A DNA stretch of 64,000 bases from Dehalococcoidia bacterium (GCA_025060295.1 JANXCH010000001.1:32896-96895); one strand, 5' to 3'. Numbered from the stretch's first letter, positions 26,354 through 45,006 are shown. Numbers and translations are program-made. Notes: generated from the sequence alone by a model not told the origin.

Positions 26354-26357
26354 GGAT

Positions 26358-27476: not shown

Positions 27477-27489
27477 AGCGAGGGGGAGT

Positions 27490-28749: not shown

Positions 28750-29266
28750 TTTGAAAGGTCTGTGGCTCACGCTGCGCACTACTTTTCGGCGTCCTGTCAC
28801 AGCTCAGTACCCTAAGGAGCACCTCCCTATCCAGCCCCGCTATATGGGCTTTCCCGCCCTTACTTGGGATGAGAAGGTGGGGGAGCCCTATTGCACGGCG
28901 TGCATGGTCTGTGTCCGCATGTGTCCCACACAATGTATGAAGGCGACCATGAAGGACAATCCCCTCTACAAAGAGGGGAAAAGCCCCCGTCGCAAGATTG
29001 TGGACACTTTTGAGATCAACCTCAATCGGTGCATCCTGTGTGGGATTTGCGTGGAGGTATGCAACTTTGACGCCATAGTGATGAGTTACGAGCACGAGTT
29101 GAGCACCTACCAGCGCAACGGGCGGCGGGTGAACCTGCAGCAATTGCTGGAGATGGGGAAGCGCTACCAGGCTCTGACGGGGTGGCGTCCGGAGTCGGAA
29201 CTGAAGGCGGAACAGGAGAAGGGGCGTTTGCCTGCCTCCTCCTCCGCATCGGCACCGGAGCGATAG
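28739..29266 (+). CDS. nuoI: NADH-quinone oxidoreductase subunit I
   Basis: Two 4Fe-4S motifs, CTACMVCVRMCP and CILCGICVEVCN. GTG 28739 overlaps the nuoH stop. Confidence 0.9.
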   Translation: MLSSLKGLWLTLRTTFRRPVTAQYPKEHLPIQPRYMGFPALTWDEKVGEPYCTACMVCVRMCPTQCMKATMKDNPLYKEGKSPRRKIVDTFEINLNRCILCGICVEVCNFDAIVMSYEHELSTYQRNGRRVNLQQLLEMGKRYQALTGWRPESELKAEQEKGRLPASSSASAPER

Positions 29267-29271
29267 AAGCC

Positions 29272-29772
29272 GTGAGCATCCCGCTCCTTGCCCTGGCCCT
29301 ATTGGCGGCGGTGGTGCTGGGAGGCGGGATAGGCGTGGTGGTGGCGCGCAATGTGGTGCACGCCGCTCTCTTTCTTCTGCTGACCTTGGCGGGTGTGGCG
29401 GGGGTGTTTGTGCTCTTGTTGGCCGAGTTCCTGGCCCTGGTGCAGGTGCTCATTTACGGGGGGGCGGTGGTCATCGTTCTGGTGTTTGCTCTGATGCTCA
29501 CCCGCGCCCAGGACTTCGCCGGCGTCCAAGACAACCCCCAGTGGGCCCTCGGGTTGATGGCGGCCATAGCGGTGCTGGGGGTGCTGACAACGGCTTTTGT
29601 GGCCTGGAGGCCTCCTACCCAACCGCTGGAGCGCGTGGGGTTTGAGGCGTTGGGGCGGGAACTGTTCCTGCGGTGGGCTATCCCCTTTGAGATCATTTCC
29701 CTGGTGCTTCTGTTAGCCCTGATCGGGGCCATGCTCATCGCCCGCGAGCGCAACGGCGGGGGGCGCCGATGA
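29272..29772 (+). CDS. nuoJ: NADH-quinone oxidoreductase subunit J
   Basis: ARNVVHAALFLLLTL.GVAG.F.LL.AEFLA.VQVLIYGGAV.I...F..M is typical of NuoJ. The GTG 29272 start lies just after the nuoI stop. Confidence 0.88.
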   Translation: MSIPLLALALLAAVVLGGGIGVVVARNVVHAALFLLLTLAGVAGVFVLLLAEFLALVQVLIYGGAVVIVLVFALMLTRAQDFAGVQDNPQWALGLMAAIAVLGVLTTAFVAWRPPTQPLERVGFEALGRELFLRWAIPFEIISLVLLLALIGAMLIARERNGGGRR

Positions 29773-30074
29773 ACCTGCTCCACCTGGAACTGCTGAGCGC
29801 AGCGCTTTTTGTCATTGGCCTGTATGGGGTGTTGGCCCGGCGCAACGCCGTGATGGTGCTGATGGCCATTGAACTGATGCTTAACGCTGTCAACATCAAC
29901 TTGGTGGCCTATGCGCTGTTCTTAGACCCGTCCCGCGTGGTGGGGCAGGTGTTGACGGTGTTTGTCATCACGCTGGCGGCGGCCGAGGTGGGTTTGGCAT
30001 TGGCCATCATTTTGCGGATTTACCGCAACCGCGGCACAGCCAACCTGGATGAGATCAACTTGATGAAGTGGTAG
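29769..30074 (+). CDS. nuoK: NADH-quinone oxidoreductase subunit K
   Basis: 101 aa with three TM segments, and MAIELMLNAVNINLVA with AAAEVGLALAII. Its ATGA overlaps nuoJ. Confidence 0.92.
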   Translation: MNLLHLELLSAALFVIGLYGVLARRNAVMVLMAIELMLNAVNINLVAYALFLDPSRVVGQVLTVFVITLAAAEVGLALAIILRIYRNRGTANLDEINLMKW

Positions 30075-30076
30075 GT

Positions 30077-30481
30077 ATGGCTCAAAGGGCGATGGACTGG
30101 TTCCGCCAGGCGCAGCGGGACTTGGAGCACGCTGAGGAGTCCCGTCGGCTGGGCCGGCACGAGTGGGCGTGCTTCGCTGCTCATCAGGCGGCCGAGAAGG
30201 CGGTGAAGGCTTTGCATTTAGCCCTGGGACAGGAGGCGTGGGGGCATGTGATCGCACGGCTTTTGAGCCAGTTGCCCAGCACGGTGCCCGTCCCGTCGGA
30301 CCTGGTGGATAAGGCGCATGTGTTAGACGCGTTCTACATCTCCCCCCGGTATCCCAACGCCTATAGCGAAGGTGCACCCTTTGAGCACTTTGGGCCTCTG
30401 CAGAGTGAGGAGGCGGTGCGCTATGCCCGTGAGACCCTTGAGTTCGTCCGTGCTCGTTTGGCCCAAGCGGCAGGAGGTTGA
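30077..30481 (+). CDS. HEPN-domain protein (putative toxin partner of a HEPN/MNT pair)
   Basis: The four-helix pattern W...A..DL..AE......H.WACF.AHQAAEKAVKALHL...........H.I..L......YISPRYPN.......F....A..A...A is typical of small HEPN proteins paired with minimal nucleotidyltransferases. ATG 30077 lies 2 nt after the nuoK stop; GTG 30068 is an alternative start. Confidence 0.75.
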   Translation: MAQRAMDWFRQAQRDLEHAEESRRLGRHEWACFAAHQAAEKAVKALHLALGQEAWGHVIARLLSQLPSTVPVPSDLVDKAHVLDAFYISPRYPNAYSEGAPFEHFGPLQSEEAVRYARETLEFVRARLAQAAGG

Positions 30482-30794
30482 CCGCGCGGTGCGCGTATGG
30501 GCGCATAGGGTGGCCCAACAGCGTTCCGATGTGCTGCGTATCGGGTATTTCGGCTCTTATGCCCGAGGGGATTGGGGTGTGGGCAGCGACCTGGACGTGG
30601 TGGTCGTGGTGGAGAGCACCACCATACCCCCGGAGCGCCGGGCAGCCGAATGGGATACCACCTCCCTGCCCGTGCCTGCCGATGTGGTGGTTCTGACACG
30701 GGAGGAGTGGGACGCCCTGCAGGGGCGGGGGGGGCGGTTCGCCCAAACCCTTGCACAGGAGACGGTCTGGGTGTATCAGAGGGGGGTGTGGTGA
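30423..30794 (+). CDS. minimal nucleotidyltransferase (MNT) domain protein (putative antitoxin partner)
   Basis: The GS-x10-DxD signature reads GSYARGDWGVGSDLDVVVVV. The protein is small (about 115-123 aa) and overlaps the HEPN ORF by 32-59 nt, depending on whether the start is ATG 30423 or GTG 30450. Confidence 0.75.
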   Translation: MPVRPLSSSVLVWPKRQEVDRAVRVWAHRVAQQRSDVLRIGYFGSYARGDWGVGSDLDVVVVVESTTIPPERRAAEWDTTSLPVPADVVVLTREEWDALQGRGGRFAQTLAQETVWVYQRGVW

Positions 30795-30830
30795 AGACCT
30801 GGGAGGGGGGGCTGCACCGAGGGGACTGGA

Positions 30831-30852
30831 GGGGCCGGGGGTTCTCGGCCCC
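30831..30852 (+). other. perfect 7-bp GC hairpin in the MNT-nuoL spacer
   Basis: GGGGCCG (30831..30837) and CGGCCCC (30846..30852) with an 8-nt loop, followed by a U-poor tail TTCCGTTG. It could be a weak terminator or an RNA processing/stability element. Confidence 0.4.
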
Positions 30853-30891
30853 TTCCGTTGAAACAGCGTGCCTATGCAGGAGGGTTAGTGT

Positions 30892-32751
30892 ATGCAGTGG
30901 GCTTGGCTTGCACCAGCCCTAAGCGCTATCGCCTTCCTGGTCATTGTCCTTTTTCGTCGTCTACTGCCCCGTGAGGGCGCGTGGCTGGCACCCTTGGCCA
31001 TCGCGGGCGGGTTTGGGGTGTTTTGGGTGGTGCTGGGGGATTGGGTGGGGGCGGGTGGTGGCCTCCACACCTTCGGTGTACCTTGGCTGGAGGCGGGGGA
31101 TATCCGCATCAGTTGGGGGATGATGGTAGACCCCCTTTCCCTAGTGCTGATGGGGCTGGTTACCTTCGTGGCCCTGCTGGTGCAGGTGTATTCCTGGGCA
31201 TATATGGCCCACGAGCCTCGCTTCGGATGGTATTTCGCCGCCCACGCCCTGTTCGCCGCCTCCATGCTAGCCCTGGTGTTGGCCGACAGTTTTCTGCTCC
31301 TCTACATTGCCTGGGAACTGGTGGGCTTGTGCTCCTACCTGCTCATAGGCTTCTGGTATGAGAGGCGGCCGGCGGCTGAGGCGGCGAAGAAGGCTTTCAT
31401 CACCACCCGTATAGGGGATGTGGGGATGTTGGTGGGCATCCTGCTCCTTTTCCAGCAGACGGGAACTTTTGACATGCCGACCATTTTGGCCCTGGTGGAG
31501 CAGGGCGGTCTGTCGTCGGGAGTGGTTACCTCGGCGGCGCTGTTGCTGTTCATGGGTGCGATGGGCAAGTCGGCGCAGTTCCCCTTGCATGTGTGGCTCC
31601 CCGATGCCATGGAAGGCCCTACCCCTGTGAGCGCTCTTATTCACGCCGCCACGATGGTGGCGGCAGGGGTGTATCTCGTGGCGCGGGTGTTTCCTCTCTT
31701 TGAGGCTTCGGGGTTAGCGCTACTTGTGGTAGCCATCATCGCCATCATCACAGCGCTGATGGCGGGTAGCATGGCCCTGGTGATGACCGATTTGAAGCGG
31801 GTACTGGCTTATTCCACCATCACCGACCTGGCGCTCATGATGCTTGCTCTGGGAGCGGGGAGCGTCACGGCGGCCATCTTCCACTTGGTGGTGCACGGTT
31901 TGAGCAAGGCCTTGTTGTTCCTGGGGGCAGGGTCGGTGAGCCACGCCACGGGGAAAACGGACATCCGGGATATGGGCGGTTTGGCTCGCCAGATGCCTCT
32001 CACGGCGTTCACCTTCGCCCTGGGGGCTTTTTCCCTGGGGGGGATTCCGCCCTTGGCCGGGTGGTTCAGCAAGGATGAGGTGTTGGTGGCTGTGGGGAAT
32101 GGACGGGGTGCCCTGTGGCTGGGATTGGCGTTTGTGGTTTCTTTGCTTAAGGCCCTGTATATGGGGCGTCTGGTGTGGATGGTCTTTTTCGGCAAGCGCA
32201 AGGTTGCCCATGTGCACGAATCGCCCCTGCTTATGACCCTGCCTCTGGTGATGTTGGGGGTCGGGGCTTTGGGGGCGGGTATCCTCCTTCTGCCGTTGGG
32301 GGATGTGTTTGGCGGATTTGGCACCTTCCTCTACACGCACAAGCCCGAGAAGTTCCACTTTGTCCCCGGGATCGCTTTGCCGTCCGCGCTGGTGGCGCTG
32401 GCGGGATTCGGATTCACCTGGATGGCCTACCATGCAGGGCGCATACCTGTGGACGCTTTGCGGGAGCGTTGGGCGGGGGTGCATCGCCTCCTAGTGCGCA
32501 AGTTTTTCCTGGATGACCTTTACCAATGGGGTGTGAACAGTATCGTGCTGGGGATGGGGCAGGCTATCGCTGTGTTTGACCGGGTGGTGGTCAACGATGC
32601 GGGGGTCAATGGCACTGGGGTGTCGGTGCTCTTGACGGGGCGGGCGCTGCGCTGGCATGTCACGGGGTTTGTGTATACCTATGCCCTGGGGATGGTGCTG
32701 GGGTTTTTGGTGGTGGCGGTGGTGTGGTGGACGGTTCTGGCACGCCTGTAG
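30892..32751 (+). CDS. nuoL: NADH-quinone oxidoreductase subunit L
   Basis: 619-aa antiporter-like subunit with WELVGLCSYLLIGFW, KSAQFPLHVWLPDAMEGPTPVSALIHAATMV, and a C-terminal lateral-helix region. ATG lies 7 nt after AGGAGGG. Confidence 0.93.
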   Translation: MQWAWLAPALSAIAFLVIVLFRRLLPREGAWLAPLAIAGGFGVFWVVLGDWVGAGGGLHTFGVPWLEAGDIRISWGMMVDPLSLVLMGLVTFVALLVQVYSWAYMAHEPRFGWYFAAHALFAASMLALVLADSFLLLYIAWELVGLCSYLLIGFWYERRPAAEAAKKAFITTRIGDVGMLVGILLLFQQTGTFDMPTILALVEQGGLSSGVVTSAALLLFMGAMGKSAQFPLHVWLPDAMEGPTPVSALIHAATMVAAGVYLVARVFPLFEASGLALLVVAIIAIITALMAGSMALVMTDLKRVLAYSTITDLALMMLALGAGSVTAAIFHLVVHGLSKALLFLGAGSVSHATGKTDIRDMGGLARQMPLTAFTFALGAFSLGGIPPLAGWFSKDEVLVAVGNGRGALWLGLAFVVSLLKALYMGRLVWMVFFGKRKVAHVHESPLLMTLPLVMLGVGALGAGILLLPLGDVFGGFGTFLYTHKPEKFHFVPGIALPSALVALAGFGFTWMAYHAGRIPVDALRERWAGVHRLLVRKFFLDDLYQWGVNSIVLGMGQAIAVFDRVVVNDAGVNGTGVSVLLTGRALRWHVTGFVYTYALGMVLGFLVVAVVWWTVLARL

Positions 32752-32763
32752 GGGGGTGGTCCG

Positions 32764-34260
32764 ATGGACTGGCTGCGCGAGAACATTTTGCTGTTGGTCG
32801 TGCTGGTGCCCTTTGGGGGGGCATTGGCATTGGCCCTGATACCCAATGAGCGGGTGGGGGTGGTGCACTGGGGGGCGCGTTGTTTGGCGACAGTCGGGTT
32901 GGTGCTGGCGGGTCTGGCCTTCATCCTCTACGACCGGGGGCAAGGGGGGTTCCAAATGGAGCGCCAGTTCCCTTGGCTTCCGTCGTTGGGTGCTTCGTTC
33001 CATGTGGGAGTGGACGGCATCGGGGTTGCGCTCATTCTTTTGAACGGCATCGTGATGTTCACGGGAACGCTGGTGTCGTGGAACATTCGGAACCGCCCCA
33101 AGGACTTTTTCGTGCTTTTCTTCCTTCTGGGGACGGGGGTATATGGCGTGTTTGCCTCTTTAGACCTGTTTTTCCTGTTCTTCTTTTACGAATTGGCCGT
33201 TCTGCCCATGTTTTTGCTTATTGGGGTGTGGGGATCCAGCACCGACTTTGGCACCTTCATTCGGACCAAGGAATACGGCGCGCTGAAGTTGACTTTATAT
33301 CTGGTGGCGGGGAGCATCCTGGTGTGGGTGGGGTTGTTGGGGCTGTGGGTGGAGGCGGGGCGCACCTCCTTTGACCTGGTGGTTCTCCAAGAGGTGTCCT
33401 TCGCCCGCACCTTCCAGCTGGTCTTTTACCCGATGCTGATGGTGGGCTTTGGGGTGCTGGCGGGACTGTGGCCGTTCCACACCTGGTCGCCTGACGGGCA
33501 TGTGGCCGCTCCTACGGCGGTGAGTATGCTTCACGCCGGGGTGCTGATGAAACTAGGGGCGTTCGGCATCCTGCAAGTGGGGATGCGCCTCTTGCCCGAG
33601 GGAGCACAGGCATGGGCACCTGTGCTGATTGCGCTGGGGACGGTGAACGTGCTCTATGGGGCGGTGAGTGCTTTGGCTCAACAAGACTTGAAGTATGTGG
33701 TGGGCTACTCGAGTGTGAGCCATATGGGATATGTGCTGATGGGGTTGGCCACCCTGGACCCGCTGGGCATCAATGGAGCCGTGCTGCAGATGTTTTCTCA
33801 CGGGATTATGACGGCCCTGTTCTTTGCCTTGGTGGGGGTGATTTACGACAGGGCCCATATACGGGATATCGGGGTGTTGGAGGGGTTAGCGAAGCGCATG
33901 GGAACCACAGCGAGTTTCTTCGCCGTGGCGGGATTGACCTCTCTGGGGCTCCCGGGGCTCAGTGGGTTTGTGGCTGAGTTGCTGGTGTTTCTCGGAGCGT
34001 TTCGCACCTACCCCGCGTTGGCGGTGTTAGGGGTGATCGGGGCGGCGGTAACGGCGGTGTATATCTTGCGCCTGTTGGGCAAGGTGTTTTTCGGTCCTCT
34101 GGGTGAGCGATGGAGGGACTTGCCCGACGCCAGCCCCCTTGAGGTGGGGGCCACGGCCCTGTTGGTGGCGGTGCTGGTGATCGTGGGGCTTGCTCCCTTT
34201 ACCCTTCTGGACACCATAGATGTGGGGGTTACAGAAGTGCTCCAGCGAGTGTTCGGCTAG
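32764..34260 (+). CDS. nuoM: NADH-quinone oxidoreductase subunit M
   Basis: FFYELAVLPMFLLIG.WG, FHTWSPDGHVAAPTAVSMLHAGVLMKLG and YSSVSHMGY. Confidence 0.93.
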   Translation: MDWLRENILLLVVLVPFGGALALALIPNERVGVVHWGARCLATVGLVLAGLAFILYDRGQGGFQMERQFPWLPSLGASFHVGVDGIGVALILLNGIVMFTGTLVSWNIRNRPKDFFVLFFLLGTGVYGVFASLDLFFLFFFYELAVLPMFLLIGVWGSSTDFGTFIRTKEYGALKLTLYLVAGSILVWVGLLGLWVEAGRTSFDLVVLQEVSFARTFQLVFYPMLMVGFGVLAGLWPFHTWSPDGHVAAPTAVSMLHAGVLMKLGAFGILQVGMRLLPEGAQAWAPVLIALGTVNVLYGAVSALAQQDLKYVVGYSSVSHMGYVLMGLATLDPLGINGAVLQMFSHGIMTALFFALVGVIYDRAHIRDIGVLEGLAKRMGTTASFFAVAGLTSLGLPGLSGFVAELLVFLGAFRTYPALAVLGVIGAAVTAVYILRLLGKVFFGPLGERWRDLPDASPLEVGATALLVAVLVIVGLAPFTLLDTIDVGVTEVLQRVFG

Positions 34261-34269
34261 GGGGGTCGC

Positions 34270-35706
34270 ATGCCTAGCGTGAACTGGAGCCTGCTGTGGC
34301 CGGAAGGTTTGGCTACCGCTTTGGCCTTTGTCATCTTTCTGGTGGATCTCTTTTTGCCTCCAGCACGCAAGCGGGCATTGCCGTGGCTGACGGCTTTGGG
34401 TCTCGGGGGTGTGCTGGCCTTCACGCTGGTGTTCCTGTGGGGGCGGCAGGAGACCCTGTTTGACGGGCTATACCGTGTGGATGCGTATGCACTGCTGTTC
34501 AAGGTGGTTTTCCTGGGGGTGGGGCTTCTGGTGGCGTTAGCCTCGATGGAATATGTGCAGAAGTACTTGGAACATCCGGGGGAATATTACGCCATTTTGG
34601 TGTTGGCGGTGGTGGGGATGATGGGCATGGCCTCGGCGGGGGAGTTACTCACGGGCATCATCGCTTTGGAGCTAGAAAGTTTTGCTCTGTATGTGCTGGT
34701 GGCGTATGCGCGAGGGGACGCCAAGTCCAACGAGGCGGCTATGAAGTTTATCCTGTTGGGTGCGTTCGCCTCGGCCCTGATGCTGTATGGAGTAAGTCTG
34801 GTGTATGGAGCCGTAGGGACGACCTTTTTTGCCGAGATGGCCCAACGCCTGCCCCAGGTGGAGCAGACGCCTGTGCTGGCTCTGGGGTTGGGGCTGGTGC
34901 TGGTGGGGTTCGGGTTCAAACTGGCGGCCGTGCCTTTCCATATGTGGGCTCCCGATGTTTATGAGGGGGCCCCTCTGCCCGTAACGGCCTTTATTGCGGT
35001 GGCCTCCAAGGCGGCGGTGGTGGCGCTTCTCTTACGGTTTCTGGCGGAGGGGGTGCTGCCCACCCAGGGGCAATGGGAGTGGGTTTTGGCAATCCTTGCG
35101 GCCCTGACCATGACGCTGGGGAACCTGGTAGCCCTGGCGCAACGCAATCTTAAGCGTCTGCTGGCCTATTCCAGTATCGGTCAGGTGGGTTACCTGTTGG
35201 CGGGGCTGACCGCGCTGTCTCCGATGGCATCCACGGGGGTGGTGTATCACCTGATCGGATATGCGGTTACCAATTTGGCGGCTTTTGGGGCCCTTATCTT
35301 CTTCTACAATCGCACGCAAGGGGATGATATCGCCTCCCTGGCGGGTGCGGCCCAGCGGGAGCCGTTCGTCGCGATGGCGATGGCGGTGGCGTTGTTCTCT
35401 CTGGCTGGATTGCCATTCTTTGTGGGTTTCTCCAGCAAGTTCTACCTGTTTACGGCAGCGGCCCAGGGGGGCTGGCTGTGGCTGGCGGCATTGGGAGTGG
35501 TGAACAGTGTAATCTCCCTCTACTACTATTTGGTGATTATTCGGCAGATGTATATCGAGCGTCCCCGAGAGGAGGGGCGTTTCTCGCTGTCGCCCCTCTG
35601 GGGAGCCACTTTAAGCCTCCTCGTGGCGGGTATCTGTGTCCTGGGGGTGTATCCGGGGCCGCTGGTGCGAGTAGTGGAGATGGCCACTCAAGCCATTTTG
35701 CCCTAG
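34270..35706 (+). CDS. nuoN: NADH-quinone oxidoreductase subunit N
   Basis: ALELESFALYVLVA, FKLAAVPFHMWAPDVYEGAP.PVTAF and LLAYSSIGQVGY. Confidence 0.93.
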   Translation: MPSVNWSLLWPEGLATALAFVIFLVDLFLPPARKRALPWLTALGLGGVLAFTLVFLWGRQETLFDGLYRVDAYALLFKVVFLGVGLLVALASMEYVQKYLEHPGEYYAILVLAVVGMMGMASAGELLTGIIALELESFALYVLVAYARGDAKSNEAAMKFILLGAFASALMLYGVSLVYGAVGTTFFAEMAQRLPQVEQTPVLALGLGLVLVGFGFKLAAVPFHMWAPDVYEGAPLPVTAFIAVASKAAVVALLLRFLAEGVLPTQGQWEWVLAILAALTMTLGNLVALAQRNLKRLLAYSSIGQVGYLLAGLTALSPMASTGVVYHLIGYAVTNLAAFGALIFFYNRTQGDDIASLAGAAQREPFVAMAMAVALFSLAGLPFFVGFSSKFYLFTAAAQGGWLWLAALGVVNSVISLYYYLVIIRQMYIERPREEGRFSLSPLWGATLSLLVAGICVLGVYPGPLVRVVEMATQAILP

Positions 35707-35719
35707 CAAGGAAGGGTGT

Positions 35720-35755
35720 GTGCGCGGGCCAGCACAGATTTCGTGGCCGGCGCAC
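35720..35755 (+). terminator. 12-bp stem-loop after nuoN (candidate operon terminator, no U-tract)
   Basis: GTGCGCGGGCCA (35720..35731) pairs with TGGCCGGCGCAC (35744..35755) with one central G-G mismatch and a 12-nt loop, 14 nt after the nuoN stop. Confidence 0.4.
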
Positions 35756-35819
35756 CATGAGACGATTTTCGTCAACATTTCGTTTCCTGCGATTGCACAA
35801 GATTATGCTTGTAAGGCCC

Positions 35820-35848
35820 TTGACAAAATGAAAGGTAGTATGTATGGT
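35820..35848 (+). promoter_or_regulatory. putative promoter (TTGACA-17-TATGGT, with TG extension) for the ABC transporter genes
   Basis: TTGACA at 35820..35825 and tgTATGGT at 35841..35848, 78 nt upstream of the ATG at 35927. Confidence 0.45.
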
Positions 35849-35926
35849 CTTGGCGAGGGGTCGCCCTTCCTTATCCCGTCTCACGGGGGCTGTGGCCCTC
35901 TCACACACTCGGCGTAAGGAGGAAGC

Positions 35927-37711
35927 ATGGCGGTGGGACGGCTCTGTGCATTCGGGTTAGTAATGGTTTTGCTGGGTTTTGCCACAGCCTGTCGAGCGGC
36001 GCCGGCGCCGACGGGCCCTACCCCCACCCCAACCTCTGTGGTCCGCCCTGCCCCCCAGCCCACGCCCACGCCCTTCCCCACTCCCACACCTTTGCCCCTT
36101 GCCACTCCTGGCGCGGGCGTCCTCCCCACGCCCACACCTATCCCTACGCCCACCCCTGGGGTGGAGGGCAAATACGGGGGCATCCTCATTTGGGCGCAGG
36201 AGCGGGATGTGGTGTCAGCCGAGATCTCCATGTATGAGGGCCTCAGTTACTTGAGCCAGCACCCCACACGCCCCCTGTATAGCCAGATCGTCATGAACGA
36301 CCCTCAAGACGCTTATAAGGTCATCCCTGACTTGGCGGAGCGCTGGGAGATGCGCCCGGACGGGATGCAGTGGACTTTCTACCTGCGGCGCAATGCGGTG
36401 TGGCACGACGGCAAGCCCGTGACCGCCCACGATGTGAAGTTCACCTTTGACCGCATGTTCAACCCGCCCCCCGGCCAGGTGCGGGGACGCGCCGCACCCG
36501 TCCTTGACTATATGGACGGCCCCGCTTCCGTGGTGGTGAAGGACGACTACACCGTCCAGTTCAATTTAAAGTTTCCGGCTGCCTCCTTCCTTGCTCTGAT
36601 GAACAATCCCTACCTGGTAGTGATGCCCAAGCACTATGTGGAGGCTCGCCCGGACAAGCAGGTGCGGGTGTGGAAGGATGTCATCGGGAGTGGGGCGTTC
36701 CGAGTGAAAAGCATGACCCCCGGCTCGTCCTATGAGATGGTGAAGTTTGACAAGTTCTACATTCCGGGACGGCCGTATCTGGATGGCATGCGTGTGCTGG
36801 TGATGCCAGACCCGGCGACCCGTTTCGCAGCCCTGCGGGCGCGTCGTCTGCACATCATCCCCCAGAGCGTTACCTATGCCCAGGCCGAGGTCATCGCCAA
36901 GGAGATGCCCCACATCGTCCTCCAGCGGGTGCCCCGCATCGCCGGCGATACCATTCAGTTGAATGTCAAACAACCGCCTTTCACCGACCCGCGTGTGCGG
37001 AGGGCGGTGTCCTTGGCTTTGCCGCGTGCGTGTCTGAAGGACGGGCCGTGCTATGCTGTGGAGCCTGATGGCTACATGGGTGGGGTGCTGTTCCCCTATG
37101 GCCCCTGGGCATTGCGCCCGGAGGATTTGGCCGACAAAGTGCCCGGCTATGCCTCTACGGTGGCGGGCAAGGAGCGGGAGCGGCAGGAGGCGCGCCGCCT
37201 TCTGGCAGAGGCCGGATTCCCCAACGGGTTCAAGATCGTTATGGACACCCGCGAGCTGCGCTCATACATTGACTGCGCCCAGTGGGCCATTGAAGAACTG
37301 CGCAAGGTGGGTATAGAAGTTACCGACCTGAAGATTCACGACTCTGCCTCTTACTACGAACTAACCCTGGAGGGACGGCATAAGATCATCGCCCACGGGC
37401 ACGCCTTTGCCCTGGACGACCCCGACCTGGTCATTCCCGACCACTACCTGTGTGGTGGGGCGGAGAACCACCCCAAGTTGTGCATGAAGGAGATTGAGGA
37501 TCTCTTTGCCAAGCAACAGCGCACCCTGGATGTGGGCGAGCGCATCCGCCTCCTGAAGGACCTCCAGCGCCTCATTCTGGACCAGGACGCCAAAATTTGG
37601 ATCGCTTGGGAGGTGTCGCGCGTGCCCCACTGGCCTGAGGTGAAGGGCTGGTATGCCGTCAACAGCCTTTATATGAGCCAGCACTTCTGGGATGTGTGGC
37701 TCGAGCGGTAG
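35927..37711 (+). CDS. ABC transporter substrate-binding lipoprotein, peptide/nickel (family 5) type
   Basis: Signal plus lipobox LLGFATAC, a long Pro/Thr linker, then a family-5 SBP core (WHDGKPVTAHDVKFTF, GSGAFR). Confidence 0.85.
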   Translation: MAVGRLCAFGLVMVLLGFATACRAAPAPTGPTPTPTSVVRPAPQPTPTPFPTPTPLPLATPGAGVLPTPTPIPTPTPGVEGKYGGILIWAQERDVVSAEISMYEGLSYLSQHPTRPLYSQIVMNDPQDAYKVIPDLAERWEMRPDGMQWTFYLRRNAVWHDGKPVTAHDVKFTFDRMFNPPPGQVRGRAAPVLDYMDGPASVVVKDDYTVQFNLKFPAASFLALMNNPYLVVMPKHYVEARPDKQVRVWKDVIGSGAFRVKSMTPGSSYEMVKFDKFYIPGRPYLDGMRVLVMPDPATRFAALRARRLHIIPQSVTYAQAEVIAKEMPHIVLQRVPRIAGDTIQLNVKQPPFTDPRVRRAVSLALPRACLKDGPCYAVEPDGYMGGVLFPYGPWALRPEDLADKVPGYASTVAGKERERQEARRLLAEAGFPNGFKIVMDTRELRSYIDCAQWAIEELRKVGIEVTDLKIHDSASYYELTLEGRHKIIAHGHAFALDDPDLVIPDHYLCGGAENHPKLCMKEIEDLFAKQQRTLDVGERIRLLKDLQRLILDQDAKIWIAWEVSRVPHWPEVKGWYAVNSLYMSQHFWDVWLER

Positions 37712-37738
37712 GGGAGCCGACAGGCGCGGAGAAGGGGG

Positions 37739-38686
37739 ATGCGCGACTACTTGATTCGGCGGTTCCTGCTCCTCATCCTCACGGTCTGGGGGGTGAGTGT
37801 CGTCATCTTCCTCATTATGCGGGTGGTGCCCGGGGATCCCATTATGGCCCTTATGGGCGAGGGGGGGGCCACCAAGGAGCAGATCGCCAAAATTCGCCGG
37901 GACCTGGGGTTGGACCGCCCCCTGGTGGTGCAGTACTTTGATTGGCTCTGGGATACAGTGCGCCTAGACCTGGGGAAGTCCCTATGGAAAGGGACGGAAA
38001 TATCCTATGAACTCAAGACGCGTCTGCCCGTAACCCTGCAACTGGCCATTATGAGCCTTATCCTCTCGGTGGTAATCGCCCTGGTAACGGGGATTGTGTC
38101 GGCCCTCAAGCAGGATACCTGGTGGGACTATGCCTTCCGAGTGTTCACCATTGCGGGGCTAGCCCTGCCCGCCTTTTGGGTGGGCATCCTCGTGATCTTG
38201 ATGCTGGCTTTGTGGTTTAACTGGCTGCCCACCATCGAGTATGTCCCGTTCTTTGAAAACCCGCGGGAGAATTTACTGCAGTTCATCTTCCCCGCCCTGG
38301 TGATCGGATGGCGTCAGGCGGCGGTTACAGGGCGTATGGTGCGCTCCTCCATGCTGGAGGTGCTGCGGGAGGATTATATCCGCACGGCGCGGGCGAAGGG
38401 GTTGGCGGAGCGTATCGTTATCTTCCGCCACGCCCTAAAAAACGCCTCTTTGCCTGTGGTAACGGTCATCGGCATTGAGGCGACCCTGCTCCTGGGTGGG
38501 GTGGTGGTGATAGAGCAGGTGTTCAGCATGCCGGGCCTGGGACGGGCGCTGGTGAGCGCCATCTATTATCGGGACTATCCCATGGTGCAGTTCCTGGTTA
38601 CCTTTTTCGCCTTTGTAACAGTAGTGATCAACCTGATTGTGGACTTGACCTACGGCTGGCTGGACCCGCGCATTCGCTACGAGTAG
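37739..38686 (+). CDS. ABC transporter permease (DppB/OppB-like)
   Basis: N-terminus MRDYLIRRFLLLILTVWGVSVVIFLIMRVVPGDP, and the EAA loop region DYIRTARAKGL.E..V...HALKNA. Confidence 0.88.
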   Translation: MRDYLIRRFLLLILTVWGVSVVIFLIMRVVPGDPIMALMGEGGATKEQIAKIRRDLGLDRPLVVQYFDWLWDTVRLDLGKSLWKGTEISYELKTRLPVTLQLAIMSLILSVVIALVTGIVSALKQDTWWDYAFRVFTIAGLALPAFWVGILVILMLALWFNWLPTIEYVPFFENPRENLLQFIFPALVIGWRQAAVTGRMVRSSMLEVLREDYIRTARAKGLAERIVIFRHALKNASLPVVTVIGIEATLLLGGVVVIEQVFSMPGLGRALVSAIYYRDYPMVQFLVTFFAFVTVVINLIVDLTYGWLDPRIRYE

Positions 38687-38708
38687 GACGGAACACGAGG
38701 AGGCATAG

Positions 38709-39626
38709 GTGGCGCTGGGCTCCTCTTCCCCGGTTGGCGCGGTGCACACTTCCACCGAGGTACGGGCTCTGCGGCGCAGTCCTTGGAAGGGTGTGGTGCG
38801 TTTCATCGTCCGCAAGCCCCTGGGAGCAGTGGGGGCGGGGATGATCCTCTTTTTGGTGCTGTTCGCCTATGTCGGGGTGTTTTTTATGCCCTACGGCAAA
38901 CTGGAGCAGAACGTCTTGGAGGCCCTGAACGCCCCTTCGCTGCGCCACCCCCTGGGCACCGACCAGTTTGGGCGCGACATGCTCACCCGCATTATGTACG
39001 CCTCCCAAGTCTCTCTGTTCATCGGTTTTGCCACCGTTCTGGTGAGTGGCGTGGTGGGTGGGATTATCGGGGTAGTCAGCGGATACTTGGGGGGGAAGGT
39101 GGATCTGTTGTTCCAGCGTGTGGTTGATGTGCTCATGTCCTTCCCCTTGCTGATTTTAGCCATGGCCATCGTGGCAATGCTGGGGGCGTCCACCTACAAT
39201 GTCATCATCGCCATCGCCATCTCCTACGCCCCCCGTTTGGCGCGGGTGGTGCGATCGGTAGCCTTATCGGTGCGGGAGAAGCAGTATGTGGAGGCGGCAC
39301 GGGCGATCGGGTGCTCCGATGTGCGGGTGATGGTCTACCATGTTGCCCCTCAGTGCGTGGCTCCCACTTTAGTGCTTGTTACTGCCCAGTTGGGGGCTGC
39401 CATTCTGGTGGAGTCGTCCTTAAGTTTCTTGGGCCTGGGCACGCAAGAGCCCAATCCCTCGTTGGGCAATATGCTCAGCGGAGCAGCGGCGGGCTACTTC
39501 GAGTTGGCCCCGTGGATGGCCATCTTCCCCGGCTTGGCCATCGCTCTCGCCGTGTTTGGATTCAATGTGTTTGGCGATGCCTTGCGGGATGTGCTGGACC
39601 CCCGCCTGCGGGGTGCAGGACGCTAA
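38709..39626 (+). CDS. ABC transporter permease (DppC/OppC-like)
   Basis: PLGTDQFGRDMLTRI, the EAA region YVEAARAIGCSD..V...HV.P, and the C-terminal GDALRDVLDPRLR. Confidence 0.88.
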   Translation: MALGSSSPVGAVHTSTEVRALRRSPWKGVVRFIVRKPLGAVGAGMILFLVLFAYVGVFFMPYGKLEQNVLEALNAPSLRHPLGTDQFGRDMLTRIMYASQVSLFIGFATVLVSGVVGGIIGVVSGYLGGKVDLLFQRVVDVLMSFPLLILAMAIVAMLGASTYNVIIAIAISYAPRLARVVRSVALSVREKQYVEAARAIGCSDVRVMVYHVAPQCVAPTLVLVTAQLGAAILVESSLSFLGLGTQEPNPSLGNMLSGAAAGYFELAPWMAIFPGLAIALAVFGFNVFGDALRDVLDPRLRGAGR

Positions 39627-39631
39627 AGGGC

Positions 39632-39661
39632 TTGACACACCCCTCCCCTTGTGGCTATCAT
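39632..39661 (+). promoter_or_regulatory. putative promoter (TTGACA-18-TATCAT) driving the T-box leader
   Basis: TTGACA at 39632..39637 and TATCAT at 39656..39661, 6 nt after the permease stop codon. Confidence 0.5.
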
Positions 39662-39667
39662 AAAAGC

Positions 39668-39972
39668 CAACAATAAAGCGGAAAAGGCGACGACCGGGAC
39701 GAGTAGCCCCCCAGCGAGGCTCCAGAGAGCCGGGGCAGGTGGAAGCCGGCGCTAGCGCAGGGGGTGAATGGCCCCGCGAGCCGCACCCCGAACGGGTCAG
39801 TGCCCTAGTAGGCGGTGCCGGGCAGGCCCCGTTACCACGGCCTGGGTGGCTCTGTGGCGTGCCTGCCACGCCACCCGAGAAGATGAGGCCTGCCCAGAGG
39901 ATAGGGCAGGCGAAGAAGGGTGGCACCGCGGTGTGCCTGTGTGCCCCGCCCCTTTATGGCGGGGCTTTTTTG
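39668..39972 (+). promoter_or_regulatory. T-box riboswitch leader, predicted tRNA-Trp responsive
   Basis: The elements occur in the canonical order. AGAGAG box at 39724..39729; distal-loop GGTGGAA at 39738..39744; specifier-loop GAA-TGG at 39766..39771; Stem III GCCTGCCC/GGGCAGGC at 39888..39911. The T-box sequence AAGGGTGGCACCGCG follows at 39916..39930, then a terminator. GGCAC (39922..39926) can alternatively pair with GTGCC (39941..39945) to form the antiterminator. Confidence 0.8.
39943..39972 (+). terminator. intrinsic terminator of the T-box leader
   Basis: GCCCCGCC (39943..39950) and GGCGGGGC (39958..39965) with a 7-nt loop, followed by TTTTTTG. Confidence 0.8.
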
Positions 39973-40022
39973 TTGGAGGCGACGACGGGGAGTGGTTACA
40001 CGCCCCTCAGGAGGAGGTGCCT

Positions 40023-41381
40023 ATGGCCGAGGAGACCAAAATCATCCTGTCAGAGAAGGAAATTCCCACCCAGTGGTACAATGTGCAGGCGGACCTGCCC
40101 AAACCCCTTCCGCCGGTAATTCACCCCGCCACCAAACAGCCCATCGGGCCCCAGGATTTGGCCCCCATCTTCCCCCAAGCCCTGATTCTGCAGGAGGTAA
40201 CACGGGAGCGCTGGGTGCCCATCCCCGAAGAGGTGCGCCGGGTGTATGCCCTGTGGCGTCCCACGCCCCTGTACCGTGCGCACCGATTGGAGAAGGCTCT
40301 GAATACCCCCGCCCACATCTACTACAAGTATGAGGGCGTCTCCCCGCCAGGAAGCCATAAGCCCAACACGGCTGTGGCCCAAGCCTACTATAACAAGGTG
40401 GAGGGGGTGCGCCGCCTCACCACCGAGACAGGAGCCGGCCAGTGGGGCAGTGCTTTGGCCTTCGCCTGTCGCCTGTTCGGACTGGAGTGCAAGGTGTATA
40501 TGGTGAAGGTCTCTTACTTCCAGAAGCCCTACCGCCGGGTGATGATGGAGACATGGGGTGCGAAGGTGGTGCCCAGCCCCAGCCCGGACACCAACGCCGG
40601 GCGGAGCATTCTGAGCAAGGATCCCGAAAACCCTGGCTCCCTGGGCATCGCCATCAGCGAGGCGGTGGAGGACGCCGCCACCCACGAGGATACCAAGTAC
40701 TCCCTGGGCTCGGTGCTCAACCATGTGCTCCTGCACCAGACGGTCATTGGGGAGGAGGCACGCCTGCAGATGGAAAAGGCAGGGGAGTATCCCGATATCG
40801 TTATCGGGTGCATCGGGGGAGGTTCTAACTTCGCTGGCTTGGCGTTGCCATTCGTGCGCGACCGCCTGCAGGGGCGCACCAAGACCCGCTTCATCGCTGT
40901 GGAGCCAGAGGCCTGCCCCTCGGTAACTCGGGGGGTATACACCTACGACTTTGGCGATACCGCTGGCATGACGCCCCTTCTGAAGATGCACACCTTGGGG
41001 CATACCTTTATGCCTCCACGCATTCACGCTGGGGGCCTGCGCTACCACGGAATGGCTCCCATTATCTCCCTGTTGGTGGAGGAGAAGGTGGTGGAGGCGG
41101 TAGCAGTGCACCAGAACCCCACCTTTGAAGCCGCCGTAACCTTCGCCCGTGCGGAGGGCATCATCCCCGCCCCTGAATCGGCCCATGCTATTCGTGTGGC
41201 CATTGACGAGGCGCTAAAGGCGCGGGAGGCGGGTCAACGGCGGGTAATTCTGTTCAACTTGTCGGGGCACGGCCACTTTGATATGCAGGCCTACGACGAA
41301 TACCTGTCGGGACGCCTGCAGGATTACGCCTATCCGCGGGAGGCGGTGGAGCGGGCGATGGCCCAGCTTCCCAAGGTGTAG
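40023..41381 (+). CDS. trpB: tryptophan synthase beta chain, TrpB2 (long) type
   Basis: TrpB2-specific N-terminus [17 protein letters not shown] lysine region [16 protein letters not shown], and [11 protein letters not shown] 40023 lies 6 nt after GGAGGAGG. The upstream 85 codons of the ORF-track entry are the T-box leader. Confidence 0.88.
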
Positions 41382-41492
41382 AGTGTAGGGGAAGGCTCGG
41401 TATGGCGGGGCGGGTGCCTCTTCCCGGGAAGCGGTGGCGCAGGGGTTGGGTGTTGCCACCCCCCGTTTCCCCACTGGCCCGAGGAGGAGAGC

Positions 41493-43004
41493 ATGTATTA
41501 CCCCACCTTAGACGAAGTGAAGAGCCTCGCCCATCACGGCAACCTGGTCCCTATTTATCGGGAACTGAACGCCGACCTGGAGACGCCCGTCTCGGCTTTT
41601 CTCAAAGTGGCGCGCCCTCCGTACGCCTTTCTTTTGGAGAGTGTGGAGGGGGGCGAGCGCCTAGCTCGGTATAGTTTCCTGGGGACCGAGCCCCGCCGTG
41701 TCATCCGCACCGGCCCCAACCAACCCGACGGCGCCCGCGACCCCCTGCAGGTGATTCAGGCCGAACTGTCCCGCTATCGGCTCGTGCCCGTGGCGGGGTT
41801 GCCCCGCTTCCACGGGGGGGCAGTGGGCTACCTTGCCTATGAGGTGGTGCGCTACTTTGAGCCGCGCGTCCCGCCGCCAAAAGCGGATGTGCTGGGCCTG
41901 CCTGAAGCGGTGTTCATGCTGTGCGATACCCTCCTCGTGTTTGATCACCTGCGCCACACCATCAAGGTGGTGAGCCACGCCTACCTGGACGGCTCGGTGG
42001 AGCGGGCCTATGCCCACGCGGTGATGCGCATTGAGCGCGTGGTGCGTCGTCTGGGGCGCCCTCTTTCCCTCCCCCGCCGTCCCACCAGCCCCTGGGCACC
42101 CACCCGACGGGAAAGCATCGTCTCCCCTGCGGGGGGCCTGGATTATGGCTCATCCGCCCGCGGCGAAGGCCCCCGCTGGACCTCCAACATCCCCAAGCCC
42201 CAATATTTAGATATGGTGCGCAAAGCCCAGGAGTACATCCGCGCGGGAGACATTATCCAGGTCGTCCTCTCCCAGCGGTTCTCGTGCCCCACCACAGCCC
42301 GCCCCCTAGACCTCTACCGTGCTTTGCGGGCCATCAACCCCTCGCCTTATATGTTCTTCCTGGCTTTGGACGGCTTTTACCTCATTGGGGCGTCGCCCGA
42401 ATTACTAGTGCGGGTGGAGGGGGATGAAGTGGCCACCCATCCCATCGCCGGCACCCGCCCTCGCGGGCGCACTCCCGAGGAGGACCAGGCCCTGGAGGAG
42501 GAACTGAAGTCCAGTGAGAAGGAGCGTGCCGAACACTTGATGCTCCTGGACCTGGGGCGCAACGATATTGGACGGGTGAGCCGGCCGGGCACGGTGCGGG
42601 TTACCCAGATGATGGAGGTGGAGCGCTATAGCCACGTCATGCACCTTGTCTCTCACGTGATGGGGCGGTTGCGCCCCGACCTGACCTGTTACGATGCTTT
42701 GCGGGCCTGCTTCCCCGCCGGCACCGTGTCCGGAGCCCCCAAGGTCCGCGCTATGGAGATCATCGCCGAACTGGAGCCCGATGCCCGCGGCCCCTACGCC
42801 GGCGCAGTGGGCTATTTCAGTTTCTCGGGCAACATGGATACCTGCATCACTCTGCGCACCATCCTGCTGAAGGATGGCGTTGCCCATGTGCAGGCGGGCG
42901 GGGGCATCGTATACGATTCCACGCCCGAAGGGGAATACGAGGAGTGCCACCATAAGGCCCGTGCCCTTCTGCGCGCCATCCAGGAGGCCGAGGTGGGGCG
43001 GTAA
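41493..43004 (+). CDS. trpE: anthranilate synthase component I
   Basis: N-terminal LESVEGGERLARYSF (Trp feedback region), SPELLVRV, AGTRPRG, EHLMLLDLGRNDIGRV and GAPKVRAMEII. ATG follows GAGGAGGAG. Confidence 0.92.
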   Translation: MYYPTLDEVKSLAHHGNLVPIYRELNADLETPVSAFLKVARPPYAFLLESVEGGERLARYSFLGTEPRRVIRTGPNQPDGARDPLQVIQAELSRYRLVPVAGLPRFHGGAVGYLAYEVVRYFEPRVPPPKADVLGLPEAVFMLCDTLLVFDHLRHTIKVVSHAYLDGSVERAYAHAVMRIERVVRRLGRPLSLPRRPTSPWAPTRRESIVSPAGGLDYGSSARGEGPRWTSNIPKPQYLDMVRKAQEYIRAGDIIQVVLSQRFSCPTTARPLDLYRALRAINPSPYMFFLALDGFYLIGASPELLVRVEGDEVATHPIAGTRPRGRTPEEDQALEEELKSSEKERAEHLMLLDLGRNDIGRVSRPGTVRVTQMMEVERYSHVMHLVSHVMGRLRPDLTCYDALRACFPAGTVSGAPKVRAMEIIAELEPDARGPYAGAVGYFSFSGNMDTCITLRTILLKDGVAHVQAGGGIVYDSTPEGEYEECHHKARALLRAIQEAEVGR

Positions 43005-43016
43005 AAGGAGCGCACG

Positions 43017-43613
43017 ATGTTGGTGCTCATAGACAACTACGACAGTTTCACCTACAACCTGTATCAGTACCTGTGTGAGCTGGGAGCCGAGGTGCGCGTG
43101 GTGCGCAACGACCAGGCCACCTTGGAGGACCTAGAGGCCACGCAGCCCCATGGGCTTGTAATCTCCCCTGGCCCGTGCACCCCGCGGGAGGCGGGCATCT
43201 CCAATGACGTCATTCGCCATTTCGGGCAGCGCATCCCCGTGCTAGGGGTATGCCTGGGGCACCAGTGCATTGGGCATGTGTTCGGAGCGCGGGTGGGGCG
43301 GGCTCCGGAGATTGTGCACGGCAAGACCTCCCTCATTTATCACGATGGTAAAGGGGTCTTTCGTGGTTTGCTCAATCCCTTCCCTGCCACCCGTTATCAC
43401 TCCTTGGTTGTCTACGAGGAGGGCCTGCCGGAGTGTCTGGAGGTGAGCGCCCGCACCGCCTCCGGGCTTATCATGGGCCTGCGCCACCGCACCTGGCCCA
43501 TTGAAGGGGTGCAGTTCCATCCCGAATCCATCGCTACTCCCGCGGGGAAGGACCTGCTGCGCAATTTCCTGGATATGGTATACTCTAGGCAGGGAGGCCG
43601 GGGAAAGCCATGA
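43017..43613 (+). CDS. trpG: anthranilate synthase component II / glutamine amidotransferase
   Basis: [26 protein letters not shown] with the catalytic Cys, and VQFHPES. Confidence 0.92.
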
Positions 43614-43867
43614 ACCTGAAAGAACTGGTCTCTGCCCACCGAGCCCACAGCCCCCGTTTGTCCGGGAAACCGCTGGAGGCGGTGCTCTTGTGGTATGCGG
43701 ACTTGGGGCTAGAGGTGTGGGACGAGGAGGTGCGCTACCATTGTCCCTCCTGTGGCATCGTGCTCACGGTCCCCGTGGAGGAGTTTGTGGTCCGCGATTC
43801 CAACGAAGACTTGCGGTGCGACGCCTGCCGAGGGGAGTTGGAGGAGCGGGGTGGCCCAATGGCGTAG
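43610..43867 (+). CDS. small zinc-ribbon protein (85 aa), hypothetical
   Basis: The ATG overlaps the trpG stop (ATGA). CPSC-x25-CDAC gives a four-Cys ribbon ([12 protein letters not shown]...[10 protein letters not shown]), with GC3-rich codons. Confidence 0.55.
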
Positions 43868-43885: not shown

Positions 43886-44122
43886 TTGGCAGTGAAAGCC
43901 TACATCCTCATCACGGTGGACACCGCTCTGACAAAGCAAATCGTCGCTACGCTGCGACGCAACCCACGCCTCAAAGAGGTGAACGAGGTACTGGGGCCGT
44001 TTGACATTATCGTGGAGATGGAGGCCCCCGATTTGGATGGGGTCACAGCTACCCTGAGGGAGGAAGTGCGCCCCATTCCCGGCATCCGCAATACCCTCAC
44101 CTGTGTGGTGATGCACTCCTGA
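43886..44122 (+). CDS. stand-alone Lrp/AsnC ligand-binding (RAM) domain protein, copy 1
   Basis: 78 aa. The pattern KAYILITVD......IV..L...P.L.EV.EV.GPFDIIVEMEAPDL......L.E.V..IPGI..T.T..V is the beta-alpha-beta-beta-alpha-beta RAM pattern with no HTH. TTG 43886 lies 6 nt after AAGGAG. Confidence 0.7.
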   Translation: MAVKAYILITVDTALTKQIVATLRRNPRLKEVNEVLGPFDIIVEMEAPDLDGVTATLREEVRPIPGIRNTLTCVVMHS

Positions 44123-44128: not shown

Positions 44129-44581
44129 ATGCCCTTCCTCTGCACCCCAATCGGGGTGGTGCGCAATGGCATCAGCGAGCCGCAAGGGGTCATCTGGGAG
44201 CAGGTGACCTCGGAAGTTGTGGTTGATGCCCAGTGGGAACCCGCCCTGGAGGGCATAGAGGCCTTCTCCCATATTTGGGTTATCTTTTGGCTCCATCGTT
44301 CCGAACCACCCGCTTCTCTGCACATCCACCCCATGGGGCGGGAGGACTTGCCGGAGGTGGGGCTGTTTGCCACCCGCTCGCCACGCCGCCCCAACCCCAT
44401 CGCCATCACCGCAGTGCGCCTGCTGGAGCGGCGCGGGCGCGCCCTGGTGGTGCGGGGCCTGGACGCTTTGGATGGCACGCCTGTGTTAGATATCAAGCCG
44501 TACCTCCGTGGTGATAAAGTGGTTCACTTGCGGGTGCCCTCTTGGCCCTCCAAACTTGGCGATCGGGTCAAGACCATTTAA
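44129..44581 (+). CDS. trmO: tRNA (t6A37-N6)-methyltransferase TrmO / TsaA-like protein
   Basis: PIGVVRNG, F.HIWVIFWLH, GLFATRSPRRPNPIAIT.VRL and LD.LDGTPVLDIKPY. Confidence 0.8.
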   Translation: MPFLCTPIGVVRNGISEPQGVIWEQVTSEVVVDAQWEPALEGIEAFSHIWVIFWLHRSEPPASLHIHPMGREDLPEVGLFATRSPRRPNPIAITAVRLLERRGRALVVRGLDALDGTPVLDIKPYLRGDKVVHLRVPSWPSKLGDRVKTI

Positions 44582-44769: not shown

Positions 44770-45006
44770 ATGACCAAGGCGTACATCCTCATTGAGACCG
44801 CCGTGGGGAAGACCCGGGATGTGGTACAGGCTCTGCGCACCATTTCAGGGATGCGCTCCGTGGACGCCGTGACGGGCCCCTACGATGTCATTGCGGTTTT
44901 GGAGGCGGATGACCTCAACACCATCGGCCAGACCGTTACGGAGAAGATTCACACCGTCAGTGGGGTCTTGCGCACCGTTACCTGCCTTTCGGTAACCGTC
45001 CGTTAG
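44770..45006 (+). CDS. stand-alone Lrp/AsnC ligand-binding (RAM) domain protein, copy 2
   Basis: 78 aa (MTKAYILIETAVGKTRDVVQALR...VTGPYDVIAVLEADDL...VSGVLRTVTC). It is colinear with copy 1, and by eye roughly a third of positions are identical. Confidence 0.7.
   Translation: MTKAYILIETAVGKTRDVVQALRTISGMRSVDAVTGPYDVIAVLEADDLNTIGQTVTEKIHTVSGVLRTVTCLSVTVR

Follow-up and report, generated by a model that had tools for sequence, protein, structure and literature searches.

In Bacillus, T-box control falls on anti-TRAP, a regulator, and TRAP governs the trp operon. The T-box of the Bacillus subtilis anti-TRAP operon (rtpA-ycbK), which Sarsero and colleagues reportedly described in 2000, is said to sense the charging of tRNA-Trp through a UGG specifier. 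Here we analyse a T-box leader ahead of the genes trpB2, trpE and trpG in DNA of a Dehalococcoidia bacterium (GCA_025060295.1 JANXCH010000001.1:32896-96895). The window is the whole stretch of DNA that was analysed, 64,000 nucleotides (nt) of one strand, and all positions are counted from its first letter. Reading of the sequence from 39400 to 40400 located a complete transcriptional T-box leader within the 396-nt intergenic region 39627-40022. Like the rtpA-ycbK T-box, this leader would read the charging of tRNA-Trp through UGG in order to adjust tryptophan biosynthesis. The Bacillus element controls a regulator, whereas the T-box in the window stands directly on biosynthetic genes and has no TRAP-type repeats.

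Systems that are closer by lineage have also been described. For Dehalococcoides, Wels et al. (2008, PMC2494555) reported three T-boxes, of which one stands on trpE and one on a 'trpB-like' gene, and later surveys, including TBDB, count Chloroflexi among the phyla that bear T-boxes. The leader in the window shares with the Dehalococcoides leaders (PMC2494555) the phylum-level lineage, the RNA family, the amino-acid specificity and the kinds of gene that are regulated, for a TrpB-like enzyme and for anthranilate synthase. Those leaders were described as separate T-boxes for trpE and the trpB-like gene, whereas in the window one leader apparently controls trpB2, trpE and trpG. The switch is of a kind already known in Chloroflexi since 2008; it is ordinary and opens no new question. 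Its peculiarities are the single leader for trpB2, trpE and trpG, and a set of structural idiosyncrasies that are typical of its clade.

The anatomy of the archetypal, feature-complete transcriptional T-box of the Bacillus subtilis tyrS type has been described (PMC7583486). In common with it, the leader in the window has a long Stem I with a kink-turn (K-turn), an AGUA/GAA specifier loop, an AG bulge and distal loop, a putative Stem II with an S-turn, a putative Stem IIA/B with CCGUUA, a Stem III, the sequence UGGNACC between the antiterminator helices A1 and A2, and a competing intrinsic terminator. Differences from the tyrS type include a G+C content of 71%, a hairpin of 35 nt inserted between IIA/B and Stem III, an A2 loop of 14 nt, a C after the specifier, a G-C pair at the base of A2, UGGC in place of the consensus UGGU, and a model score below the cut-off. 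None of the leader's departures from the canonical T-box removes a module. Like the translational ileS T-boxes of Actinobacteria, it has a T-box discriminator core and belongs to a lineage outside the Firmicutes that is rich in G+C. In the ileS leaders Stem I is short and the Shine-Dalgarno sequence is sequestered; in the window, by contrast, Stem I is long, a terminator with a U6 tract is placed 50 nt before the start codon, and the Shine-Dalgarno sequence is free.

Identification of the leader and its relatives

The Rfam T-box model RF00230 matches the leader over its full length (model positions 1-219 of 219) at 39681-39956 on the plus strand, with a score of 74.2 bits and an E-value of 2.9e-16 in a permissive scan of 39550-40100. 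All of the motifs listed in an initial annotation of the locus were found at the coordinates claimed for them when the sequence was read. The core of that annotation, a tRNA-Trp T-box transcriptional attenuator before trpB2-trpE-trpG, is upheld by the model match, by a covarying Stem I that carries UGG, by the UGGC bulge and by the identity of the genes. We conclude from the sequence that the leader is very probably a functional tRNA-Trp T-box attenuator. The direct basis of this reading is homology in sequence and structure, covariation in Stem I and in the antiterminator, the relative stability of mutually exclusive structures, and the identities of the genes. The 13-nt T-box core occurs a single time when both strands of the window are searched, and no second core was found elsewhere in it. 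Further Rfam matches below threshold, among them anti-hemB and Hrs1, were set aside, as they fit nothing but the terminator hairpin.

As to the family assignment, the score from the covariance model falls below the curated cut-off, but the match is statistically overwhelming and leaders of orthologous genes exceed the cut-off. Relatives were collected by a genome scan with TrpB2, which gave 80 loci (L001-L080). Of these loci, 19 carry a T-box core upstream of trpB2 and on its coding strand; the leader in L021 is otherwise cut off by the end of the contig. A profile of Stem I used with nhmmer recovered 20 leaders, newly those of L065 and L077 (Thermanaerothrix), bringing the total to 21 of the 80 loci. 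The leader of the window could be aligned with 20 others that precede trpB2 in genomes and metagenome-assembled genomes (MAGs). Five orthologous leaders exceed the Rfam gathering score, at 99.6-108.8 bits, and these align in the same manner as the window, with GAA-UGG-N, UGGC, and an insertion of 35-41 nt after CCGUUA.

The hosts of the leaders are labelled Dehalococcoidia, Anaerolineae, Caldilineae, Ktedonobacterales, Tepidiformaceae, Chloroflexia and Thermanaerothrix, almost all of them lineages of the Chloroflexota. Among the 80 loci, the best relative of TrpB2 (L001, 79% identity) is in a Chloroflexi MAG and is without the leader. Furthermore, trpE directly follows trpB2 in only one of the fetched loci (L070). 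This patchy occurrence of the leader, together with the rarity of the gene adjacency, suggests that the genes under T-box control are readily changed within the phylum.

Stem I and the specifier

The features of Stem I that characterize the family (basal K-turn, specifier loop with AGUA and GAA, AG bulge and distal loop) are all present, and the motifs AGAGAG (39724-39729), GGTGGAA (39738-39744) and GAATGG (39766-39771) were read directly from the sequence. The Rfam Stem I structure was projected onto an alignment of 19 leaders. Across its 20 pairs, which form five helices, 90.4% of the pairings are standard, compared with 28-44% when the partners are slid. Compensatory changes, on both sides of the pair, are found in 17 of the 20 pairs, and none of 500 shuffles matches the observed values.

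The sequence GAAUGG is invariant in all 19 aligned leaders. Since the covarying helix 39695-39698/39773-39776 is fixed and C39772 is the last unpaired base, UGG lies in the canonical frame (0). The fold that covariation supports puts UGG in the specifier slot, as the initial annotation had it.

Specificity for tRNA-Trp was also read from the bulge that would pair with the 3' end of the tRNA. The bulge is UGGC in 19 of the 21 leaders and UGGU in the other two, and both can pair with G73. According to TBDB, the discriminator of the cognate tRNA-Trp is G, and 46% of Trp T-boxes carry UGGU, which makes a G:U wobble. In this respect, the earlier use of UGGC as a determinant of specificity stands in part: it is consistent with G73, but with 46% of Trp T-boxes having UGGU it is supportive and not a strong, separate or diagnostic sign. 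UGGC thus speaks for Trp but is no independent proof of it.

Antiterminator, terminator and proposed mechanism

Among the 21 leaders, A1 covaries between AGGG/CCCU, AAGG/CCUU and GGAG/CUCC, and the A2 pair next to the bulge is G-C in 7, A-U in 8 and G-U in 6. The bases 39946-39950 are common to the 3' strand of the antiterminator and the 5' arm of the terminator. The terminator is as first described, an 8-bp hairpin of G and C with TTTTTTG at 39943-39972: all eight pairs are G-C, its energy is -18.4 kcal/mol (z = -3.9), and six T are followed by G up to 39972. The energy of the antiterminator with its bulge open is -15.2 kcal/mol, against -18.4 kcal/mol for the terminator by itself and -26.0 kcal/mol for the full segment. 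The terminator is thus the more stable of the two, and termination should occur by default, in line with what T-boxes lead one to expect. In the relatives that were checked, a terminator-like hairpin overlaps the 3' strand of the antiterminator, mostly with a U-run after it.

The initial annotation had the antiterminator form between GGCAC of the T-box and the 5' arm of the terminator, and this part has to be replaced: the conserved antiterminator consists of A1 and A2, and GGCAC sits in the bulge that has to be left unpaired for the 3' end of the tRNA. The pairing between GGCAC and the terminator arm, which is seen in an unconstrained minimum free energy (MFE) fold, was rejected as the functional antiterminator, as it fills this bulge and the relatives lack it. 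In the window, GGCAC (39922-39926) is complementary to two copies of GUGCC further downstream, at 39933-39937 and 39941-39945; the unconstrained MFE fold uses such pairing, which in the terminated state would mask the UGGC bulge and which the relatives do not have.

In the mechanism that we propose, Stem I would offer UGG (39769-39771) to the CCA anticodon of tRNA-Trp, with the distal loop docking on the elbow of the tRNA. If this tRNA is uncharged, its 3' end, G73-C-C-A, would pair with UGGC (39921-39924). Such tRNA binding is predicted to stabilise A1 and A2, which would then occupy 39946-39953. Once formed, the antiterminator would block the terminator (39943-39965 with U6), and RNA polymerase would enter trpB2-trpE-trpG. 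With a charged tRNA, or with none, the terminator as the stabler structure would form and transcription would end near 39971. Most likely, the switch turns on the three tryptophan-synthesis genes upon a build-up of uncharged tRNA-Trp, a response to charging that we infer from these structures. This arrangement would place anthranilate synthase, the first step of the pathway, and a stand-alone TrpB2 under one sensor of tRNA-Trp charging. TrpB2 is described in the literature as indole-scavenging.

Alternative explanations

Several observations weigh against a working tRNA-Trp switch. The RF00230 score of 74.2 bits is below the Rfam gathering score for this family, a curated annotation cut-off of 93 bits, and a default Rfam scan of the whole window returned two tRNAs only and no T-box. 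Directly 3' of the specifier stands C39772, where the family has a purine, and a purine at this position has been called 'functionally critical' in a review (PMC7583486). The basal pair of A2 is G39928-C39949 and not the usual G-U steric sensor. The motif that flanks Stem III in T-boxes is 5'-RRRxG-Stem III-AA-3' (PMC7583486, PMC11404447), and the RRRxG flank in the window is imperfect, being either off by 2 nt in register or interrupted by the inclusion of one U. A pairing that is specific to the window, between GGCAC (39922-39926) and GUGCC (39933-39937) at -6.4 kcal/mol, could mask the tRNA-binding bulge. Finally, no tRNA-Trp gene was found in the window or in loci L001-L060, and the match of the bulge to G73 in the organism's own tRNA is a predicted one.

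Most of these features could be expected of a relic, a T-box that is decaying or constitutively off or on and senses no tRNA: the sub-threshold score, the C for a conserved purine, the G-C for G-U at the base of A2, the imperfect purine string and the possible bulge-masking hairpin would all be signs of it, and the closest relative by TrpB2 is without the leader. We consider this quite improbable, since all of the modules are aligned, in order and across the full model, and no damage is seen in the promoter, the terminator with its U6 tract or the Shine-Dalgarno sequence. The score is below 93 bits because of a composition ('bias') term of 22.9 bits at 71% G+C and two long insertions that are penalised too. 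A C after UGG also occurs in the leader of L011, which at 104 bits is above the Rfam cut-off. In the ribosome C1400 takes the equivalent stacking position (PMC7583486), which makes a pyrimidine after the specifier conceivable. The G-C pair at the base of A2, shared by one third of the leaders (7 of 21), is a known working variant; G-C also serves as a steric filter, though it is less frequent (PMC11404447, citing Li et al. 2019). The complementarity between GGCAC and GUGCC that would mask the bulge may be due to chance in a G+C-rich sequence.

The altered base after the specifier bears on a different proposal as well, in which the T-box reads another tRNA through a shifted triplet, either AUG (Met, -1, 39768-39770) or GGC (Gly, +1, 39770-39772). 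GGC is the classic glycyl specifier, C39772 at the position of an expected purine puts the register of the loop in question, and TBDB weighs the -1 and +1 frames in ambiguous cases. Against this, the covarying helix that leaves C39772 as the last unpaired base keeps UGG in frame 0, and UGG is invariant but GGC is not, since 17 of the 19 aligned leaders continue with A or G, and the window and L011 with C. All three downstream genes belong to the tryptophan pathway. UGGC, which pairs with G73, also argues against both shifted frames, because bacterial tRNA-Met has A73 and bacterial tRNA-Gly has U73. A shifted specifier is therefore regarded as very improbable.

There is also an open reading frame (ORF) that runs from ATG 39768 into trpB2, and classical attenuators control trp operons in Actinobacteria according to the literature, so that the region might hold no T-box at all and instead be a coding extension of trpB2, a leader-peptide attenuator or a binding site for TRAP. 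The covariance-model match and the covariation favour a T-box. In addition, none of the short ORFs that begin in the leader has tandem Trp codons, and no TRAP-type array of triplets was found in it, the longest chain of (G/U)AG having two members. The supposed extension of trpB2 is without homologs among the 80 trpB2 loci (no match at E < 1e-3 to its 85 residues), whereas the first 40 residues from 40023 have a homologous match in 77 of the 80. Since the strong Shine-Dalgarno sequence GGAGGAGG precedes ATG 40023, homology starts at 40023 and the extension contains an intrinsic terminator, the 85 codons are judged not to be coding. Coding extension, leader peptide and TRAP control were all rejected on the homology, ORF and (G/U)AG searches, and we hold it extremely improbable that the leader is anything other than a T-box.

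Promoter, gene start and operon

The tRNA-Trp T-box lies behind a promoter that had been recognised at the outset as TTGACA-18-TATCAT, and it is the only promoter-like site within 39400-40200, where shuffled sequence gave a mean of 0.1 sites. Transcription would be predicted to start near 39668-39670, about 7 nt past TATCAT. The family matches listed in Table 1 confirm the order trpB2-trpE-trpG given for the downstream genes. No exact record exists for TrpB2 in its 452-aa or its 537-aa form, and TrpE was found only on a Logan contig from SRR15826900. The gap between trpB2 and trpE (111 nt, 41382-41492) was searched for a promoter and a terminator, and neither was found, so that a single trpB2-trpE-trpG transcript is likely.

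Mechanical ORF calling gives a frame at 39768-41381 (537 amino acids, aa), which prolongs trpB2 by 85 codons from its opening ATG at 39768. The initial annotation had warned that the ORF track fuses the leader into a false extension of trpB2 and that automated annotation may miss the element; both warnings were justified, with a homolog-free extension, a true start at 40023, and a default Rfam scan that stays silent. The locus is of value for annotation in this respect: a real, G+C-rich T-box falls under the Rfam cut-off and its leader is swallowed by a naive ORF call. Under a standard cut-off and mechanical ORF calling, both the gene start and the regulation would be mis-annotated.

Table 1. 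Coordinates of the leader modules, expression signals and downstream genes in the window.
Feature	Position	Strand	Details
Promoter, sigma-70 type	39632-39661	+	TTGACA 39632-39637, 18-nt spacer, TATCAT 39656-39661; 11 of 12 consensus positions
Stem I	39687-39781	+	RF00230 alignment; MFE fold agrees on helices
K-turn strands of Stem I	39689-39694 and 39777-39779	+	RF00230 alignment
Specifier loop	39699-39705 and 39766-39772	+	5' strand ACGAGUA, 3' strand GAAUGGC; RF00230 alignment
AG bulge	39721-39728	+	UCCAGAGA; RF00230 alignment
Distal loop	39734-39744	+	RF00230 alignment
Specifier triplet	39769-39771	+	UGG (Trp), directly after GAA in covarying Stem I
Stem II	39784-39817	+	S-turn elements GAA 39790-39792 and AGUA 39807-39810; RF00230 alignment, homology only
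Stem IIA/B	39819-39841	+	CGG 39819-39821 with CCG 39829-39831; F-box-like CCGUUA 39829-39834; hairpin from RF00230 alignment
Extra linker hairpin	39843-39877	+	Between IIA/B and Stem III; 13 bp, 3-nt bulge; fold, Rfam insertion
Stem III	39888-39911	+	GCCTGCCC 39888-39895 with GGGCAGGC 39904-39911; 8 bp, 8-nt loop; -18.5 kcal/mol, z = -5.1
T-box sequence	39916-39930	+	DNA AAGGGTGGCACCGCG, RNA AAGGGUGGCACCGCG; sequence read, RF00230 alignment
7-nt bulge	39921-39927	+	UGGCACC, variable base C39924; between A1 and A2
Antiterminator A1	39917-39953	+	AGGG 39917-39920 with CCCU 39950-39953; 4 of 4 paired
Antiterminator A2	within 39917-39953	+	GCGG 39928-39931 with CCGC 39946-39949; 4 of 5 paired
Intrinsic terminator	39943-39971	+	GCCCCGCC 39943-39950 with GGCGGGGC 39958-39965; 7-nt loop; U6 39966-39971
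Shine-Dalgarno and true trpB2 start	40010-40025	+	GGAGGAGG 40010-40017; ATG 40023-40025
trpB2	40023-41381	+	TrpB-like pyridoxal phosphate (PLP) enzyme, 452 aa; NF009057 768.5 bits (cut-off 366), TIGR01415 686.5 bits, PALP domain
trpE	41493-43004	+	Anthranilate synthase component I, 503 aa; TIGR00564, 561 bits
trpG	43017-43613	+	Glutamine amidotransferase component II, 198 aa; TIGR00566, 255 bits

Stem II to Stem III

The central part of the leader was placed largely by alignment with the family model. Folded alone, the segment of Stem II is no better than its shuffles (z = 0.09). In Stem IIB, a pseudoknot of GCC (39826-39828) with GGC (39839-39841) is predicted from the sequence and from a conserved YCAGRGC in the relatives. 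The segment 39826-39886, which holds the extra linker hairpin, folds at -26.5 kcal/mol (z = -2.4).

A hairpin is also found at the linker position in the relatives, with an outer stem of approximately GGGYAU with GURCCY, of which 4 of the 6 outer pairs covary; the window has its hairpin in a different register. It lies, for example, at 2819-2856 in L002, 2810-2851 in L011 and 2858-2886 in L037. It might be proposed that T-boxes of Chloroflexota trpB2 form a structurally distinct sub-class, in which a conserved extra linker hairpin compensates for a relaxed purine after the specifier and a relaxed G-U sensor; we regard this as unlikely. If such a sub-class did exist, the extra hairpin would be a functional module, for example an added contact to tRNA or protein, or an aid to co-transcriptional folding in hosts that are G+C-rich or thermophilic.

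Stem III is the perfect 8-bp helix that had been noted, and it is flanked 5' by GAGAAGAUGAG and 3' by GAAGAA, both rich in purines. In L015 (about 1815-1880), L018, L026, L059, L061, L065 (about 2835-2900), L070 and L077 the region of Stem III is enlarged. Within it lies a G+C-rich hairpin with a U-run behind it, for example CGCGCC...GGCGCGTTTTTG, resembling an extra intrinsic terminator upstream from the T-box sequence. Carriers of this extra-terminator-like hairpin are mostly labelled Anaerolineae or Thermanaerothrix, and the hairpin is absent from the window.

Neighbouring genes

The upstream neighbour of the leader is an Opp-type ABC transporter, with a solute-binding protein and two permeases, that ends at 39626. 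The upstream region 22419-39626 as a whole is of housekeeping character, with an H+-pyrophosphatase, genes for subunits of NADH dehydrogenase (nuo) and this transporter. Among 28 larger ORFs that were scanned from 22 to 63 kb, there is no further trp gene (trpD, trpC, trpF, trpA or canonical trpB), and from this result the genes of the tryptophan pathway appear to be split across the genome.

Downstream of trpG, an ORF of 85 aa at 43610-43867 on the plus strand starts in overlap with the trpG stop codon (ATGA) and encodes two CxxC pairs in a zinc-ribbon-like arrangement. It has no Pfam match and no match in the 80 related loci, and it is a called gene on Logan contig L081. Possibly, the transcript under T-box control includes this ORF as its fourth gene. 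Gene calls on the same contig further give two stand-alone ORFs of 78 aa with the AsnC_trans_reg ligand-binding domain, at 43886-44122 (+) and about 44770-45006 (+), that flank a gene for a TrmO-like tRNA methyltransferase (44129-44581).

Further along the window, a homolog of ThyX (Thy1) is found at 52692-54206 on the plus strand, with 504 aa and two matched Thy1 stretches. The typical length of ThyX is about half of this, and the homolog in the window could be a tandem duplication or a fusion.

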